A DNA stretch of 64,000 bases from a virus (Duplodnaviria; Caudoviricetes): positions 21,260-85,259 of IMG/VR virus record IMGVR_UViG_3300033171_000001. One strand, written 5' to 3'. The translations under genes were made by a program, and so were the position numbers. This document shows, piece after piece, positions 2,460 to 36,040 of this stretch; positions within the stretch are counted from its first letter, which is position 1, and the number at the start of each line of letters is the position of its first letter. The notes under the pieces are model-generated. The model was not told where the DNA came from. It did not search any database and worked only from the letters and a program-made list of their open reading frames with translations.

Positions 2460-3412
2460 TGATGACTTTTCCAAAAGAAGGGATTAATGTTCTAAGTTTG
2501 TTTGATGGAATCAGTTGTGGTCAGGTGGCACTGGAACGAGCCGGAATCAAGGTGAATAAATACTTTGCCAGTGAAGTAGATAAACACGCCATAAAGGTTA
2601 CGTATAAAAATTATCCTGACACGATTCAATTAGGAGATGTTAGAGAAATACAAGGAAAAGATTTGCCAAAGATTGATTTATTGATAGGCGGTTCTCCCTG
2701 TCAAGGATTCTCTTTTGCTGGAAAGCAGTTGAATTTTGACGATCCCCGAAGTCAGTTGTTTTTTGAATATGTCCGATTGAAAGAAGAATGTTGCCCTCGA
2801 TGGTTCCTTCTTGAAAATGTTAACATGAAAAAGGAATGGTTGAAGGTAATAGATGAAAAATTAGGCGTTGTTGGAATTAAAATAAATAGTGCATTGGTAT
2901 CTGCTCAAAATCGAGTTCGCTGGTATTGGTCAAATATTGATTTTGATATACCAGAAGACAAAGGAATACTCTTGAAAGATATAATCGGAAAATATGATGG
3001 CGTATATGTTGTACCAAGAGGAACTAATAAAGGAGGCATTAAGGAATATAAAGGCAAATCCCCTTGTATAACCACTTCTGCTTGGCAACATAATTTTTTT
3101 ATAGTAAATACTGATGACGAATATGTGGATAGGGATAAATCGCACTGTATAGACGCTTCATATTTTAAAGGTGGTAATCTTAATCAATATTTCAATAAGT
3201 CGCGTAGACAATTGGTCTTTGATAAATATGGATGTTCTTTTAGAAAATTTTATGTTAAAGAGTGTGAAGCTCTGCAAACCTTACCTATTGGATACACAGA
3301 AGGTATTTCAGATTCACAGGCGTACAAGGCAATAGGAAACGGATGGACGGTAGATGTTGTTGCTCATATTTTTTCAAAACTAAAGGAAAAGTTAAATGCT
3401 AAAATGGATTGA
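2459..3412 (+). CDS. DNA cytosine-5 methyltransferase
   Basis: SLFDG (motif I), GGSPCQGFS (IV), ENV (VI), QNR (VIII), YKAIGNGW (X). Confidence 0.92.
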   Translation: MMTFPKEGINVLSLFDGISCGQVALERAGIKVNKYFASEVDKHAIKVTYKNYPDTIQLGDVREIQGKDLPKIDLLIGGSPCQGFSFAGKQLNFDDPRSQLFFEYVRLKEECCPRWFLLENVNMKKEWLKVIDEKLGVVGIKINSALVSAQNRVRWYWSNIDFDIPEDKGILLKDIIGKYDGVYVVPRGTNKGGIKEYKGKSPCITTSAWQHNFFIVNTDDEYVDRDKSHCIDASYFKGGNLNQYFNKSRRQLVFDKYGCSFRKFYVKECEALQTLPIGYTEGISDSQAYKAIGNGWTVDVVAHIFSKLKEKLNAKMD

Positions 3413-3617
3413 TGTAGAAGAAGAAAAACCCATTCATTCAGGTGAGTTGATTCTAGGCAAGGGTAGCATATCCAACTCCCTTGTGATGTGCTATTATAGA
3501 GAAACGGTGGATGTGTTTGTGAACGCCTTTGATAAAACACAAATGCTGTCTGTTAAAAAATATGTCTATATGAAAGATGTGTTTGATGAACTAAATGGGA
3601 ATGAGAAGGGAGAATAA
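3396..3617 (+). CDS. Hypothetical protein
   Basis: ORF overlapping the upstream gene end; WIDVEE-type N-terminus common in small phage ORFs. Confidence 0.6.
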   Translation: MLKWIDVEEEKPIHSGELILGKGSISNSLVMCYYRETVDVFVNAFDKTQMLSVKKYVYMKDVFDELNGNEKGE

Positions 3618-6742: not shown

Positions 6743-8690
6743 AGAATATGTTGAACAAAGAGAAAAAATAATTTCGCAATTTGAACGAAATGAAATAAAA
6801 GAAGACATATACCACAGAAAACTTCAGGCACTATACGCCAAGCGAATCCCGCTATATAGAAAGGGCGGGGATGGGTTTGTGCTGTGGGCAGAGGAGAATA
6901 TTAAAGTGAACGCTTTTATTCCTGGAACATCCGTACAACGCCCCACCTACCTCGCAGATTTATCCAGAGAACCGGAACCTTCCACCGGAAAATCATGGTG
7001 GAGCTTCTGGTGTTGGCAGAAAGAGATATGCAGGGAAGCCTTAGTATTGGGGGATGACAACAGACTAAAGCATAACCTTGTTATATTTTGCACGGAGCGT
7101 GGTGAAGGTAAATCTTTCATGGCGGTTATGATCTTATTATGGAAGTTCACCGTATTTGCTAACCAAAGAATATTTCTTGCGGCAAACTCTAAAGAACAGT
7201 CGGGGTTTGCGCATCGGGAGGAAATGGATAAGATCATAAGAATTAGTCCAGTTATTCTTGCCCTGCTTGGGGGAGAAAAAAACATACTGTCTAAAGAATT
7301 AGCAATTTATGATAGTAAGGGCCTTAAAATTTCGTTCATTACTACCGTTTCTACATTTACAGGTGTACTTTCCAATGCGACGGGGTTTTCCTTCTCTGAA
7401 TTTTTCCAAGCAAAGCCGGATGCTCCGTTTTTTAACCAAATTTATTCATCCATGCGCAACATGCCTAATGCGCTTGGGGTTATTGATTCCACTGTTTCAA
7501 CAAGGGATCACAAATTATTTAAATTATATCAGCAAGTTCAAGAAGGGGTTAAAGGAAGTGAAAGCTGGTTCTTTTATTACAAGTGCAACCCCACCGCTGA
7601 TGTAAACCTGTATAAATCTCCCGCGAACACCCAAAAACAACTGGATGCTTTCCAGGCGTCAACAGCGGCCAACCCAGTTGAATTTTCAATGTTCTTTAAG
7701 AATACCTGGGAGTCGGCCCAAGCGGGGCTATTTTCAGATATTGACATAGAGGCTACACATTATATTGGTGCAGACGGTAAAATAGGTAATCACGAACAAG
7801 TTATAAATAGATTAGAAATACTCAATAAGCATAAGAAAGATGAACAATATGTTGCGGATAAGGGGTTAAAGTTAAAGCAACGGCCCGAATTACAAGAATT
7901 TGACAAAAAGAGTTTAAATTCTTTTGATAAGTACGTCCCACAGTTAAATGAAGAGGAATTTACTATATCTGCGGAGGTTCTATCTAATTTATCTGATTTA
8001 TTTGATACTGACTGGACAATTGGCGTTGGATTGGATAGAAGTGATCCTTTAGCTATGGCAAGTCGCTCTTCTGCCCAAACAGTCCTTACTTGCGTTGCTA
8101 AGGGTTTACCAGGAAGTAGGAGCAATCCATATTTATATTTAGATACCGGGAATGGAGAACTCTCTTCTCCTGAATACCTACATATTCAATGTGGATTGTA
8201 TATTGCAAAAAGGTCTACTTCTGATGAGCTTCAACAGGTTATTGGGGATTGGCATGATGAGTTTAACGGGGTGGAATCTTTTGCATCAGATAGGTATGGT
8301 GTAAGTGATGTAGTTGGGTGGCTTGTTGCAGAGGGTATTGTTGATAAACCGGAAGTAGTACAATTCTCTACCCAAAAGCAACGAGAGGTTTTCGCTATGT
8401 TGTATAATGTTATTCACTATGGTAGATTTAAAAAACCCAGGATATATATACCGGGGGCTAAAGAAGTAGATATAGTGGTTGAACAATTGAAGGAGTTTAG
8501 TGTCTCATATAATGGTAGGACTGTTAAATACGGCTCGCCGCAGAAAAGCCGACTCAATGGCGTTCAGGACGATGCTGTAGATGCTTTGGCGATGTGTATT
8601 TATGGAATGAGACATTTAGGCATGGACCAATTCAAGGCTATAAAAGTTAAAGATTTCTTTGGGACCTACATTTCACCGAGCAGGTATTAA
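6732..8690 (+). CDS. terL: Terminase large subunit
   Basis: Walker A RGEGKS, AANSKEQS, C-terminal RNase H-like acidic residues (GLDRSD, DRYG, DDAVDALAM); upstream of the portal. Confidence 0.85.
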   Translation: MTSKEYVEQREKIISQFERNEIKEDIYHRKLQALYAKRIPLYRKGGDGFVLWAEENIKVNAFIPGTSVQRPTYLADLSREPEPSTGKSWWSFWCWQKEICREALVLGDDNRLKHNLVIFCTERGEGKSFMAVMILLWKFTVFANQRIFLAANSKEQSGFAHREEMDKIIRISPVILALLGGEKNILSKELAIYDSKGLKISFITTVSTFTGVLSNATGFSFSEFFQAKPDAPFFNQIYSSMRNMPNALGVIDSTVSTRDHKLFKLYQQVQEGVKGSESWFFYYKCNPTADVNLYKSPANTQKQLDAFQASTAANPVEFSMFFKNTWESAQAGLFSDIDIEATHYIGADGKIGNHEQVINRLEILNKHKKDEQYVADKGLKLKQRPELQEFDKKSLNSFDKYVPQLNEEEFTISAEVLSNLSDLFDTDWTIGVGLDRSDPLAMASRSSAQTVLTCVAKGLPGSRSNPYLYLDTGNGELSSPEYLHIQCGLYIAKRSTSDELQQVIGDWHDEFNGVESFASDRYGVSDVVGWLVAEGIVDKPEVVQFSTQKQREVFAMLYNVIHYGRFKKPRIYIPGAKEVDIVVEQLKEFSVSYNGRTVKYGSPQKSRLNGVQDDAVDALAMCIYGMRHLGMDQFKAIKVKDFFGTYISPSRY

Positions 8691-8691
8691 T

Positions 8692-9696
8692 ATGGGACGT
8701 AAAGCTAAAGGCATAGTAAATGATGACGGCCGCACTTGTACTAAGTGTGGCGAATTTAAGGCGTGGAGTGAGTTTAGTATACGTACCATAGGGACACGGG
8801 GGAAACAAAGTAAATGTAAATTATGTGTTAATACGTATTATGAAGAAAATAGAGATGTTATATTAAAGAATAAAAAAGAATATTATGAAGAAAATAAGGA
8901 TACTAGAAAGGAATATAACAAACAATATTATGAAGAAAATCGTGATGCTAAATTAGAATATAACAAACAATATTATGAAGAAAATCGTGATGCTATTTTA
9001 GAATATCAAAAACAATACTATGAAGAAAACAGGGATGCCAGAAAAGAATATGACAAACAATACTATGAAGATAAACGTGATGTTAAATTAGAAAAGCAAA
9101 AACAATATTATGAAGAAAATCGTGACGTTGTATTAGAACAGAAAAAACAATATAGTATCTCCCCTGCTAACTATGGAACATTTAAAAATCAATTAACGCC
9201 TTTAGAGTTCCCAAGAGAATCTAAGGAAGGATATTTAGAAGTTAAATGCGCTACATGCAGGAAATATTTCATTCCAACTAATATACAAGTGCAATGTAGA
9301 ATACAAGCATTAAATGGAAATATAACAGGGGAACACCGCCTCTATTGTTCAGATGCTTGTAAAGAATCCTGCTCTGTCTTTGGTCAAAGAAAATACCCCA
9401 AAGGCTTCAAGAAACCCTCCAACCGGGAATATTCAACTGAATTTCGCAACATGATCCTTGAACGAGATAACTACACCTGTCAAGTATGTAATAATAAATT
9501 TGACAAGAAACATTTGCAAGCACACCATATAACTCCTATTATATGCAGTCCCATGGAACAAGTAGATATAAAAAACGGAATATGTATTTGTAAAGAATGT
9601 CATATAAATCTTCATCTAACACAAGAAGGTATTACTTACGCAGAGTTGATCAAGGCCGGTAAGAGCAAAGAAGATAAAGATGAAAACGAAGATTAA
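8692..9696 (+). CDS. HNH endonuclease, copy 1 (N-terminal Zn finger, 7 x 15-aa repeats, middle Zn finger, HNH)
   Basis: CTKC..CKLC, (YYEENRD...KQ)x7, CATC..CSDAC, CQVC..HH..N..CKECH. Confidence 0.9.
   Translation: MGRKAKGIVNDDGRTCTKCGEFKAWSEFSIRTIGTRGKQSKCKLCVNTYYEENRDVILKNKKEYYEENKDTRKEYNKQYYEENRDAKLEYNKQYYEENRDAILEYQKQYYEENRDARKEYDKQYYEDKRDVKLEKQKQYYEENRDVVLEQKKQYSISPANYGTFKNQLTPLEFPRESKEGYLEVKCATCRKYFIPTNIQVQCRIQALNGNITGEHRLYCSDACKESCSVFGQRKYPKGFKKPSNREYSTEFRNMILERDNYTCQVCNNKFDKKHLQAHHITPIICSPMEQVDIKNGICICKECHINLHLTQEGITYAELIKAGKSKEDKDENED
8836..9150 (+). repeat. 7 tandem 45-bp coding repeats
   Basis: 315 nt = 7x45, each encoding a YYEENRDxxxExxKQ-like unit. Confidence 0.9.
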
Positions 9697-9708: not shown

Positions 9709-10908
9709 ATGAAAAAACACTATGTGGTAGACACAAACGTCCTCATTGATTCCCCTCATGCAATTGAATCTCTCAGAAACGGTAAGGACGGCGGCGATAC
9801 CAATGAGGTTTACCTGCTTGAAACGGTACTTAATGAGGTAGATGGCCTGAAGAGGAAAACCACCCTCAAATCCATAGTTCAAAAAGTAGTAGCAAACCTT
9901 CATTCCCTTGCAGACGAAATAAATTACTTCGAAAATGAAACTGTTTCTACGAATATTTCTGAAAATCCAGATGACAGAATCCTAGCTGGTGTATTAATGG
10001 CCGAAGAGGAGTATGACGCTCCGATGATTCTATTAACCAATGATAGAGTGCTTCAACTAAAAGCTAATTTTCTTGGTATCCAGGTTGAAGAGTTCAAGGA
10101 CAGTATTCCCTTTAATAATGAGGAAGATATTAACACTGGATTTGTTGAGTCAAAAGATGATTTTAAGTACGTTAACACTTTCTGTTTTGATAATGGGATT
10201 CTTCTTTTTAATGGTAAGGATGAAATCAAACCGATTGGATATGAGAATAAAGTATGGGCAACCAAACCTAAACACTATACACAGAACGCCGCATTTGAAC
10301 TTCTCCTGAATGATACTATCGATCTAGTCACGCTTTCCGCTAGTGCCGGTATGGGGAAAACCCACTGTGCGGTTGCTTCGGCTCTTGATGCTGTTCTGCA
10401 AAAGAAGAAGTATGAAAAGATTTATATATTTAAATCAATAGAAGATGTTGGGCCATCTATTGGTTTCCTTCCAGGGACTATGGAAGAGAAAATCGACCCC
10501 TACATGCGCTACATAAAGAGCATGTTCTTTAAACTGCACAATATGAGAAAGGGCAATGGAAAAGTATTTCTTGATGATAAAACATTGAATCCAGAATTTG
10601 TCGAAATCCTTCCTTTGACATATATTAGAGGCATGAACATAGATAACGCCTTTGTGATTATTGATGAAGCACAAAACATATCCCGTCTAAATATGCGATC
10701 CTTGCTTACTCGTATGGGGGATAACGTGAAGTGTGTCGTATGCGGCGACCCTAATCAAGTAGATAATCCTAATCTAAGCAAAGAGAATAACGGCCTCAAT
10801 TGGTGTGTCAAGTTGTTCAGTGGAGCAGATAACTATGGACATATTCAATTAGGCGGCAAGAAAAGTCGTGGACCTATATGTGATTTGGTTCTTGAAAAGA
10901 AATTATAG
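9709..10908 (+). CDS. phoH: PIN-domain PhoH-family ATPase
   Basis: N-terminal VDTNVL..PDD..TND PIN domain; GMGKT Walker A, IGFLPG, IRG, IIDEAQN, GDPNQ. Confidence 0.92.
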   Translation: MKKHYVVDTNVLIDSPHAIESLRNGKDGGDTNEVYLLETVLNEVDGLKRKTTLKSIVQKVVANLHSLADEINYFENETVSTNISENPDDRILAGVLMAEEEYDAPMILLTNDRVLQLKANFLGIQVEEFKDSIPFNNEEDINTGFVESKDDFKYVNTFCFDNGILLFNGKDEIKPIGYENKVWATKPKHYTQNAAFELLLNDTIDLVTLSASAGMGKTHCAVASALDAVLQKKKYEKIYIFKSIEDVGPSIGFLPGTMEEKIDPYMRYIKSMFFKLHNMRKGNGKVFLDDKTLNPEFVEILPLTYIRGMNIDNAFVIIDEAQNISRLNMRSLLTRMGDNVKCVVCGDPNQVDNPNLSKENNGLNWCVKLFSGADNYGHIQLGGKKSRGPICDLVLEKKL

Positions 10909-34884: not shown

Positions 34885-35217
34885 ATGTCTAATTTTACTG
34901 TATATAGAGACACAGATGGTACCCTGACCTTTGAGGTTAGAAATACTGCTGGTTCTTTGATTGATTTATCTACGGCCACCGTAAAGATGGTAATTGGAAC
35001 TACTGCATATGCGTTTGTGGCAGTAAAGGACGGTGCGGGGCAAGATGGGACCGGAGATACTAATGCTTCTGTTATTTTTACTAACGACGATGCTATTTGG
35101 GGTACGTTGACAGGAGACACCTATACATACCAATTAAATGTTACCGATGTTGCTTCTAAGGTTACTATCCCGGTAGAAGGGCGACTAACCATCAAGAAGC
35201 AGATACCGCAATCCTAA
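34885..35217 (+). CDS. Ig-like / BppU-N-like virion accessory protein
   Basis: YRDTDGTL.FEV..IDLSTATV...G.YTYQL.V..T...G.L.I pattern. Confidence 0.5.
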   Translation: MSNFTVYRDTDGTLTFEVRNTAGSLIDLSTATVKMVIGTTAYAFVAVKDGAGQDGTGDTNASVIFTNDDAIWGTLTGDTYTYQLNVTDVASKVTIPVEGRLTIKKQIPQS

Positions 35218-35231
35218 TTATTGAACAATAA

Positions 35232-35259
35232 AAAGCCCCTCTCAAAAGAAAGGGGCTTT
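35232..35259. terminator. Bidirectional rho-independent terminator
   Basis: AAAGCCCCT/AGGGGCTTT stem flanked by A and T tracts at the junction of the converging blocks. Confidence 0.85.
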
Positions 35260-35264
35260 GTTTT

Positions 35265-35401
35265 TGGGCGGCTCCGCCGAGGACTTGAACCGCCGCACAT
35301 CGTCCTTGATGTCTAAAATACAAGGCTCATAGATGCGTTTTCTACACGCCTTCGGGCTTGCAAACCGTTCAGCGATATGTCCTCACCACCGGGAGCCGCC
35401 C
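35265..35401 (-). ncRNA. tRNA-like structured RNA candidate
   Basis: 10-bp terminal inverted repeat, 3' end GGAGCCGC-CCA, GGTTCAAGTCC T-loop motif, CGG-T-TTGCAAG-C-CCG anticodon-like arm, internal hairpins. Confidence 0.5.
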
Positions 35402-35411
35402 CACAATAAAA

Positions 35412-35597
35412 TTATTCGCCTTTAATTTTTGTCGAAACCTTGTCGATGTCGCATATCATTTCTACAGAGATAACAACGTCATCGGCGCAGTCGGCGGCGT
35501 CACGAATATCCACCGCAACGACATGAATCGTGTTAACTTCGCCTGAGGGACGCTTGCTTTTTACGCAATAGATTTGACCTTTTTCCATCTTTCTCAC
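35412..35597 (-). CDS. Hypothetical protein
   Basis: ORF with GAGG SD in the GC-rich patch. Confidence 0.5.
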   Translation of the reverse strand: MRKMEKGQIYCVKSKRPSGEVNTIHVVAVDIRDAADCADDVVISVEMICDIDKVSTKIKGE

Positions 35598-35608
35598 CTC
35601 ATGTTTCC

Positions 35609-36040
35609 CTATTTGTCATCATTCTGGCCGGTGGCCGCTTGCATCTGCCGATAGTAGTCCATGGCAACGGACTCATCGGCGTAGAATGACCGCAAGTTGG
35701 TGTGGAGCATTGCAGCCGCCTTCCTGAGGAATCCGCACTTCTTCTTGTCGGTGTTGAAGGCGGTGGCCCCGCCTGGCGCGGTCGCACTGGTGGACAGGAT
35801 GACCACCTGATCGTAGCCGTACTTTTCGGCAATGCGCTTGGCCTCGGAGATGGGGATTTCTTGCGCCAGCTCCTTTTCTAGGGCGACTCGGTTAGTTGTC
35901 TTCATATCGTCAAACGGACTGTACTCCTCGTAGCCATACCGCAGTATTTTTCCGATTGCCTGTTGAGCTTCGCCAAGCTCTTCAAGCATCAGGGCCAGTC
36001 TCTCATGTTCAGCTGGTGTCGGTTGATTAAAACCACTCAT
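35609..36040 (-). CDS. MazG-like N-terminal half fused to an unrelated domain
   Basis: LALMLEELGEAQQAIGKILRYG..EKELA lacks the usual following DV; continues as IPISEAKRIAEKYGYDQVVIL. Confidence 0.45.
   Translation of the reverse strand: MSGFNQPTPAEHERLALMLEELGEAQQAIGKILRYGYEEYSPFDDMKTTNRVALEKELAQEIPISEAKRIAEKYGYDQVVILSTSATAPGGATAFNTDKKKCGFLRKAAAMLHTNLRSFYADESVAMDYYRQMQAATGQNDDK

Follow-up and report, generated by a model that had tools for sequence, protein, structure and literature searches.

Is the GC-rich, tRNA-like segment that ends just ahead of a terminator in the phage analysed here a tRNA, an RNA imitating one, or what a tRNA gene has become? The segment lies in a 64,000-nt stretch (hereafter the window), part of an 85-kb IMG/VR virus record of a siphovirus-type phage whose gene set includes a gpJ-like tail protein, a class II ribonucleotide reductase with an intein and a MazG-like gene. 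A sequence-only reading had described the segment as a structured RNA ending in CCA, close to but distinct from a canonical tRNA. We compared it with its sole homologue found, in a prophage of Pseudodesulfovibrio profundus that is also present in IMG/VR (L020), and with a partial variant from a landfill metagenome. The comparison leads us to favour, on balance, the view that the window copy is a tRNA-derived, non-decoding relic reshaped into a closed 3'-UTR rod at the end of an operon. We are fairly confident that it is not a tRNA, a tmRNA, a Y RNA or an att site.

Position and predicted fold of the window copy

The features of the locus, in order of transcription, are as follows.

35605-35616, minus strand: upstream mosaic junction AAATAGGGAA around the stop codon of the MazG-like gene, where homology to the prophage cassette begins and MazG homology of the type found in contig L002 ends (alignments)
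35412-35588, minus strand: 58-aa ORF with a GAGGTG Shine-Dalgarno site, travelling with the RNA and belonging to no known family (gene call, searches)
35265-35402, minus strand: the whole non-coding element, very probably tRNA-derived (sequence, fold, prophage alignment)
35392-35401, minus strand: 5' strand of the 10-bp closing helix, corresponding to a tRNA acceptor 5' strand GGGGCGG plus CUCC, the D-stem 5' strand of the prophage copy (sequence, repeats, fold)
35379-35384, minus strand: GAGGAC, partner of GUCCUC (35284-35279) in the rod; at 35380 the window has A, the prophage and the landfill variant G (fold, alignment)
35353-35367, minus strand: hairpin 1, CGG / UUUGCAAGC / CCG, anticodon-arm-like; loop letters 35361 and 35358 vary in the landfill contig (host comparison, variant)
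35322-35352, minus strand: hairpin 2, AAGGC ... GCCUU with an inner stem, the sole internal helix predicted in both copies (fold)
35278-35294, minus strand: T-arm-like segment GGCGG-UUCAAGU-CCUCG, with a canonical loop and 3 of 5 stem pairs, predicted to be absorbed into the rod (motif, fold, matches to host T-arms)
35279, minus strand: last base common with the prophage, the homology breakpoint, in the 3' strand of the T-stem (alignment)
35257-35275, minus strand: replacement 3' arm GGAGCCGCCCAAAAACAAA, complementary at 16 of 19 positions to the 5' flank plus acceptor strand (35392-35410); the prophage has CCGCUCC-CCA there (alignment, repeats)
35232-35259, minus strand: bidirectional intrinsic terminator, a 12-pair stem followed by a T run (terminator prediction)

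The position just before a terminator, as first described, was confirmed. The stop codon of the 58-aa ORF lies 10 nt upstream of the element, the terminator (35259-35232) begins 5 nt after its 3' end, and no sigma-70-like promoter was found upstream of it on the minus strand. On the simplest reading, the element would therefore form the 3' UTR of the nucleotide-metabolism operon and be co-transcribed with it by read-through. The ribonucleotide reductase gene of this phage (37261-40314, minus strand), of the B12-dependent class II, is split by an intein carrying a LAGLIDADG homing endonuclease domain.

The closing stem proposed at first proved real. The strands GGGCGGCTCC (35401-35392) and GGAGCCGCCC (35275-35266) form ten perfect pairs on the minus strand, and the helix extends to a 19-nt inverted repeat of 84% (16/19) between 35392-35410 and 35257-35275. 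The window contains as many as 56 pairs of perfect inverted repeats of at least 10 bp at distances of up to 160 nt, so that the closing stem alone is not significant. The CCA placed after the stem is found only if the helix is cut to 8 bp; otherwise two C residues are paired and the helix is followed by AAAA. A second tRNA-like feature, the T-loop motif GGTTCAAGTCC at 35291-35281, is the sole GGTTCRANNCC match in the 64-kb window (0.91 expected on both strands), and it agrees with the consensus G53-U54-U55-C56-R57-A58...C61.

The predicted minimum free energy of the window RNA was -62.9 kcal/mol, against -47.0 +/- 4.0 kcal/mol for 200 dinucleotide shuffles (z = -4.0). The predicted structure is a rod-like multibranch fold, with pair probabilities of about 1.0 for the closing helix, for GAGGA/UCCUC and for AUCGCUG/CGGCGGU. 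This corresponds to the rod with GAGGAC/GTCCTC that had been offered as an alternative fold, whereas the cloverleaf preferred at the time is not the predicted structure. The T-loop with an imperfect T-stem was thus correctly recognized as a motif, but its stem has a pair probability of 0.0, and forcing the T-arm costs +6.5 kcal/mol. The proposed long D-like arm has a probability close to 0; one of the D-arm pairs is C·A, and the 5' strand is predicted to be occupied by the closing helix. Among the hairpins assigned to an expanded variable region, CCTTG/CAAGG competes with the better supported AAGGC/GCCTT (pair probability 0.7-0.99), while GCGT/ACGC is destroyed in the homologue by a 1-nt deletion and a G>T change.

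The geometry of the window copy departs from that of a tRNA in other respects as well. Instead of a 7-bp acceptor stem stacked on a 5-bp T-stem, a 10-bp helix stands apart from the T-like hairpin. Where a tRNA has a 7-nt anticodon loop on a stem of 5 bp, the central stem here surrounds 62-75 nt, and hairpin 1 has 3 pairs and a loop of 8-9 nt. The pairs of the closing helix are all Watson-Crick, and no G3·U70 pair is present. No complementarity of the RNA to the phage genome was detected above chance.

Searches with dedicated programs gave a consistent result. ARAGORN detected neither a tRNA nor a tmRNA in the window, and none of the 4227 Rfam covariance models matched the element at its gathering score, in agreement with the statement that this is not a canonical tRNA. 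At E values up to 10, Rfam returned only chance matches driven by the terminator, and tRNA (RF00005) was not among them. A tmRNA search with ARAGORN -m down to a 50-60% threshold, together with Rfam, yielded nothing; no tag-peptide reading frame is conserved across both copies, since a 1-nt indel between them shifts every frame. The self-cleaving ribozyme, riboswitch, intron and Y-RNA models of Rfam gave no match. The Ro60/TROVE domain (PF05731) is absent from the 85-kb record, which is about 88% complete and in which the control domains were matched, and no gene for a CCA-adding enzyme was found in the phage genome. When ARAGORN was run with introns allowed, it produced 523 calls in 85 kb at a 70% threshold and about one call per 7-28 kb at 90%. 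Calls obtained with such settings are noise and were not considered as evidence. In a deletion scan of the window copy, default ARAGORN called a tRNA in none of 1,053 variants.

The only tRNA that ARAGORN finds in this phage is located about 10.9 kb before the start of the window (G000:C1:10270-10362, minus strand). It is 93 nt long, with anticodon UAU (Ile), a long variable arm, a C1-G72 pair, C73 and an encoded CCA, and this body is unusual for an AUA decoder. This tRNA is directly followed, still outside the window, by another GC-rich, RNA-like element, which is multi-branched and closed by a helix of 12 bp (G000:C1 ~10145-10265, minus strand). In sequence it is unlike the element analysed here, scoring 20 in an alignment where shuffles average 21.5.

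The prophage homologue and the shared cassette

DNA homology between the window and the prophage is limited to positions 35616-35279 (338 bp, 93.8% identity), both flanks being unrelated. The shared stretch contains the Shine-Dalgarno site, the 58-aa ORF and the RNA up to ...TCCTC, just after the T-loop. In the prophage, the RNA (L020 6186-6319) is separated from the gene for a tyrosine integrase (7774-8814) by 1.45 kb and four genes, and the cassette sits between two genes. Two phages related to the prophage have only a 27-nt spacer before the downstream gene, and their homology to the prophage starts at ACTCAGCA. These empty sites indicate that the prophage ORF and the whole RNA, including CCGCUCC-CCA, form an inserted cassette of about 340-350 bp. 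The boundary ACTCAGCA..AGGAG, which precedes small Cys-rich ORFs, is conserved in four phages (L020:6322-6344, L061:4981-5000, L062:1660-1679 and L002:~3405-3425). It marks the cassette ends and looks like a recombination linker that includes a ribosome-binding site.

A search of 5.8 billion proteins identified a single relative of the 58-aa ORF, in P. profundus. The product of the ORF belongs to no Pfam or PHROG family, has no informative Atlas neighbour and was modelled by AlphaFold with a pLDDT of 50. The two copies of the ORF differ by seven non-synonymous and two synonymous changes, and between window and prophage the RNA has diverged as fast as the adjoining ORF. Eighteen sludge metagenome contigs carry the ORF; the ten examined have an identical copy of the RNA.

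Other searches did not extend this family. Exact-pattern scans of IMG/VR found no copy beyond the prophage homologue. Those of the GTDB genomes gave three matches, none fitting the model beyond the seed word (one, on inspection, was inside a 965-aa ORF), and a pattern scan of JGI metagenomes gave seven, none of which fitted our covariance model R1. No homologue was added by BLAST against the INPHARED phages, nor by BLAST against 401 Desulfovibrionaceae genomes, where only chance matches in coding DNA were obtained. Model R1 likewise found no further homologue in the phage itself and related loci or in 42 Pseudodesulfovibrio genomes, its one match there being within an ORF.

In the window, the element belongs to a GC-rich island (~34900-36040) with 45-61% GC, against 33-38% in the rest of the genome. 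The island has at least two sources, the 3' part of the MazG-like gene resembling IMG/VR contig L002 (84.6% identity over 267 bp with the MazG-like gene of this third phage) and the ORF-RNA cassette resembling the P. profundus prophage. The island is therefore a mosaic, its two parts of different kin being joined at the short shared sequence AAATAGGGAA. In L002, the same slot after the MazG-like gene is taken by a different element (L002:3288-3412), also GC-rich, about 125 nt long and paired at its ends. It contains a hairpin reminiscent of a T-arm, CCGGG-UGGGGAA-UCCGG, does not exceed shuffles in fold stability (z = -0.5) and does not match model R1. A 'tRNA-like' call that ARAGORN made on it came from the relaxed settings and is void.

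The minimum free energy fold of the prophage copy is a cloverleaf, with probabilities of 0.8 for the T-arm and 0.87 for the central stem. The acceptor stem consists of 7 bp (GGGGCGG/CCGCUCC) with a G3·U70 pair and is stacked on the T-arm GGUGG-UUCAAAU-CCUCC. The D-stem, CCC/GGG, is a short hairpin of 3 bp whose loop GGUGGUGA contains GG. The central stem CAUAUCG/CGAUGUG encloses two hairpins, and CCA follows the acceptor strand directly, with no discriminator base. Position 8 is C, where tRNAs have U8, and the T-stem has a U·U mismatch. This fold is not more stable than shuffles (z = -0.8).

The unaltered prophage copy was not called by default ARAGORN and did not match Rfam RF00005, even at E values up to 10. 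ARAGORN with introns at the 90% threshold, a noisy setting, drew it as a tRNA with a 62-nt insert. When exactly 62 nt were removed, at any of six adjacent positions of the anticodon loop, default ARAGORN called a 71-nt tRNA, whereas no other deletion of 50-75 nt led to a call. In a control deletion scan of random 140-nt genomic segments, a call was obtained in 7 of 10,320 cases. BLAST of the RNA against the 4.2-Mb host genome identified T-arms as the best non-self matches, that of tRNA-Tyr (19/20) being followed by those of Ser, Gln and Pro; host tRNAs share no more than the T-arm with the element. The deletion test, the rarity of control calls and the T-arm matches together give good support to a tRNA ancestry, and we are fairly confident that the element descends from a tRNA-like gene with an insertion. 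The relation to tRNA first proposed for the window copy is thus borne out through its homologue, a tRNA body with a 62-nt insert.

The identity first given to the anticodon-like arm, that of tRNA-Cys (GCA), was not supported. The loop of hairpin 1, UUUGCAA, is part of an arm most like that of host tRNA-Ala(UGC), with 17 of 20 positions alike, and two of its letters vary in the landfill contig. Since 96 of 1000 shuffles reach the same score, the likeness to tRNA-Ala(UGC) is not significant and serves as a lead only, although it would fit the Ala-type acceptor.

Proposed remodelling of the 3' end and competing explanations

The two copies part just after TCCTC, where the prophage continues with C-CCGCUCC-CCA and the window with GGC-GGAGCCGCCC-AAAAACAAA. 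The new 3' arm looks like the 5' flank and acceptor strand of the element itself, copied in inverted orientation, and a template switch at a quasi-palindrome is its likely origin. Because this arm also pairs with CUCC, which belongs to the D-stem in the prophage, the cloverleaf is lost in the window copy.

Mapping of four public DNA runs to the window provided one landfill metagenome contig of the same phage lineage, with a depth of 3.8. It differs from the window at 35358, 35361 and 35380. All three changes are within its 102 nt of RNA, while its 128 nt of ORF are unaltered; two of them convert the loop of hairpin 1 from UUUGCAA to UUUACAC in this single contig. The A at 35380 of the window is probably derived, as the landfill variant and the prophage both have G. 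It turns a G·U pair of the rod helix into A-U and breaks the D-stem. The two full copies and the one partial variant offer 7 to 10 differences. Covariation in homologues had been suggested as a check; among the seven RNA differences between the full copies we found no compensatory pair, and with so few copies no fold is backed by covariation.

We propose the following course of events. The ancestor, still visible in the prophage, would have been a tRNA-shaped gene with a 7-bp acceptor stem containing G3·U70, a 3-bp D-stem, GG in the D-loop, a canonical T-loop, an encoded CCA and a 62-nt two-hairpin insert in the anticodon loop. It would have travelled with the 58-aa ORF between phage genes as a cassette of about 340 bp. 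Upon entry into the AT-rich siphovirus, the last ~12 nt (the 3' acceptor strand and CCA) may have been lost and replaced, likely by template switching, with the apparent inverted copy of the 5' flank and acceptor strand. The transcript would then close by the 10-bp helix into the rod-like multibranch fold directly ahead of the terminator, a form for which neither charging nor decoding should be possible. Its present role, if any, may be that of a stable 3' end structure shielding the operon transcript from 3' exonucleases. That the prophage type is ancestral is inferred from its likeness to a tRNA and not from a rooted tree.

Two observations run against a simple relic. The regained perfect 10-bp closure could reflect selection for a closed RNA, that is, for function, and the fact that the cassette has recently reached two phages with no other relationship suggests some benefit. 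The different predicted folds of the two copies fit a relic, but could also mean that the thermodynamic model missed a shared tertiary fold.

The most serious competitor of the relic reading is a working tRNA mimic, or a small RNA built on a tRNA scaffold, whose tRNA-like ends would provide RNase P and 3' processing as well as stability. Its active part would be the 62-nt insert with the anticodon-like loop, acting for example as a decoy for anticodon nucleases or as a sponge for a tRNA-binding factor, and the prophage copy might even be alanylated through G3·U70. The intact tRNA body of the prophage, with this pair and an encoded CCA, speaks in its favour, as do the closure of the ends in both copies despite different 3' strands and the recent movement of the cassette. 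The resemblance of hairpin 1 to an anticodon arm points the same way, but it is matched by 96 of 1000 shuffles, and the arm has only 3 stem pairs and a loop of 8-9 nt. Similarly, two of the three landfill differences fall in a 7-nt loop and none in the ORF, but they come from one contig of low depth. RNA and ORF diverge at the same pace, the prophage fold does not exceed shuffles in stability, and the phage lacks a partner gene such as Ro/TROVE or that of a CCA-adding enzyme. The window copy fails every test of tRNA geometry, and its T-arm is predicted not to form. We consider a working mimic rather unlikely. A stronger form of the same idea is more doubtful still: ORF and RNA would constitute a mobile cassette with a natural tRNA-scaffolded effector, its anticodon-like loop switching from UGC to UAC between strains as a decoy against anticodon nucleases or other tRNA-targeting defences, and the window variant would have regained its closure by selection.

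The possibility of a remodelled att-site relic had also been raised. A remodelled relic comes close to our conclusion, but the att site does not. In this explanation the element would be the leftover of site-specific integration into a tRNA gene, with a meaning at the DNA level only. Some integrases use the region 3' of the T-loop, which is where the homology breaks, and the prophage encodes a tyrosine integrase. However, the element is 1.45 kb and four genes away from the integrase and not at the prophage end, it carries both acceptor strands and not just a 3' part, its likeness to host tRNAs is limited to the T-arm, and it lies inside a cassette for which related phages have clean empty sites. 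Fragments of tRNA genes left by integration are common in prokaryotic genomes (PMC9897764), and this general frequency is in favour of the explanation, but the details of the locus make it very unlikely.

It appears slightly less probable again that the element is an inverted repeat, GC-rich by virtue of lying in an acquired island, that arose by chance and means nothing at the RNA level. The 56 inverted repeats of 10 bp or more in the window, the high GC content of the island, which favours pairing, and the lack of covariation are as expected for such a repeat. It is disfavoured by the stability of the window fold relative to dinucleotide shuffles (z = -4.0), by the T-loop motif inside the element and by the homologue, which passes the deletion-scan test for a tRNA at a control rate of about 7 in 10,000.

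Least probable of all is an intron-containing tRNA, spliced to a working 71-nt tRNA in the prophage and present in the window as its pseudogene: although removal of exactly 62 nt restores a tRNA for default ARAGORN, the introns of bacterial tRNAs belong to group I and measure some 200 nt or more, far above these 62 nt with their two simple hairpins, Rfam gave no match to an intron or ribozyme family, no bulge-helix-bulge motif was seen by eye, the ambiguous junction (anticodon GAG, GAA or AAG) is at odds with the Ala-type acceptor, U8 is replaced by C and the T-stem contains a U·U mismatch.

Relation to known RNAs

Compared with a canonical tRNA (a class II-like body with an Ala-type acceptor), the prophage copy is alike in the stacking of the acceptor on a 5-bp T-stem, the UUCAAAU T-loop, the D-stem, G3·U70 and CCA. 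It differs by the 62-nt insert in the anticodon loop, C8, the T-stem mismatch and the missing discriminator. The window copy retains the 5' strand, the D-loop letters and the T-loop, but the 10-bp closing helix takes the place of the tRNA 3' strand.

Phage T4 produces stable small RNAs (species 1 and 2) of about 120-140 nt, of unknown function, that are tied to tRNA genes and their processing. The element is of similar size and also phage-encoded, but the T4 RNAs belong to a tRNA cluster and it does not. A tmRNA resembles the prophage copy in its paired GGGGC...GCUCC ends, its G3·U70 pair, its T-arm and the long helix in place of the anticodon stem. However, tmRNAs have 230 nt or more, against 134-138 nt here, and the element has no tag frame and no tmRNA match in ARAGORN or Rfam; the window copy is also without G3·U70. 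The bacterial Y RNA YrlA is a non-coding RNA with a T-arm-like module that occurs in some phages too (PMC7824862). Its paired ends form a Ro-binding stem and not an acceptor stem, whereas this phage has no TROVE/Ro gene and its element no Rfam Y-RNA match.

Non-canonical tRNAs and tRNA fragments in mobile elements are already known (PMC9897764, PMC7609411). Like the tRNA fragments and pseudo-tRNAs described (PMC9897764), the element is non-canonical, occurs in a mobile-element context, is missed or mislabelled by gene finders and is most likely non-decoding. Those fragments are partial 3' or 5' duplicates at att sites, whereas the element has both ends, an internal insertion and an ORF-linked position in an intergenic cassette. 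The same architecture, with a structured insert replacing the anticodon loop, has been engineered in tRNA scaffolds expressed in E. coli (PMC3753655); these are a laboratory design, while the element is known from its sequence. Our literature search turned up neither a phage tRNA body that has a non-intron insert of 62 nt and is linked to an ORF, nor a case in which an inverted copy of its 5' end had made such a body into a rod.

Genes for tRNAs and odd tRNA-like sequences are numerous in phages, and a link is now being drawn between them and the evasion of tRNA-cutting host defences. Among such sequences, a tRNA body whose anticodon loop holds a structured insert of 62 nt, and which is passed together with a small ORF between unrelated phages, is of an unusual form. 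The locus also carries a warning, namely that a T-loop motif and a closing stem do not make a tRNA. Overall, we regard the element as a modest curiosity and not as a new class of RNA. Should its RNA prove to be processed and stable, the element would represent in nature what the tRNA scaffold is in the laboratory, and it would be a decoy candidate. Should it be no more than a relic, which we judge more likely for the window copy, it would show how a tRNA gene can decay and be reshaped, by inverted duplication, into a 3' hairpin.
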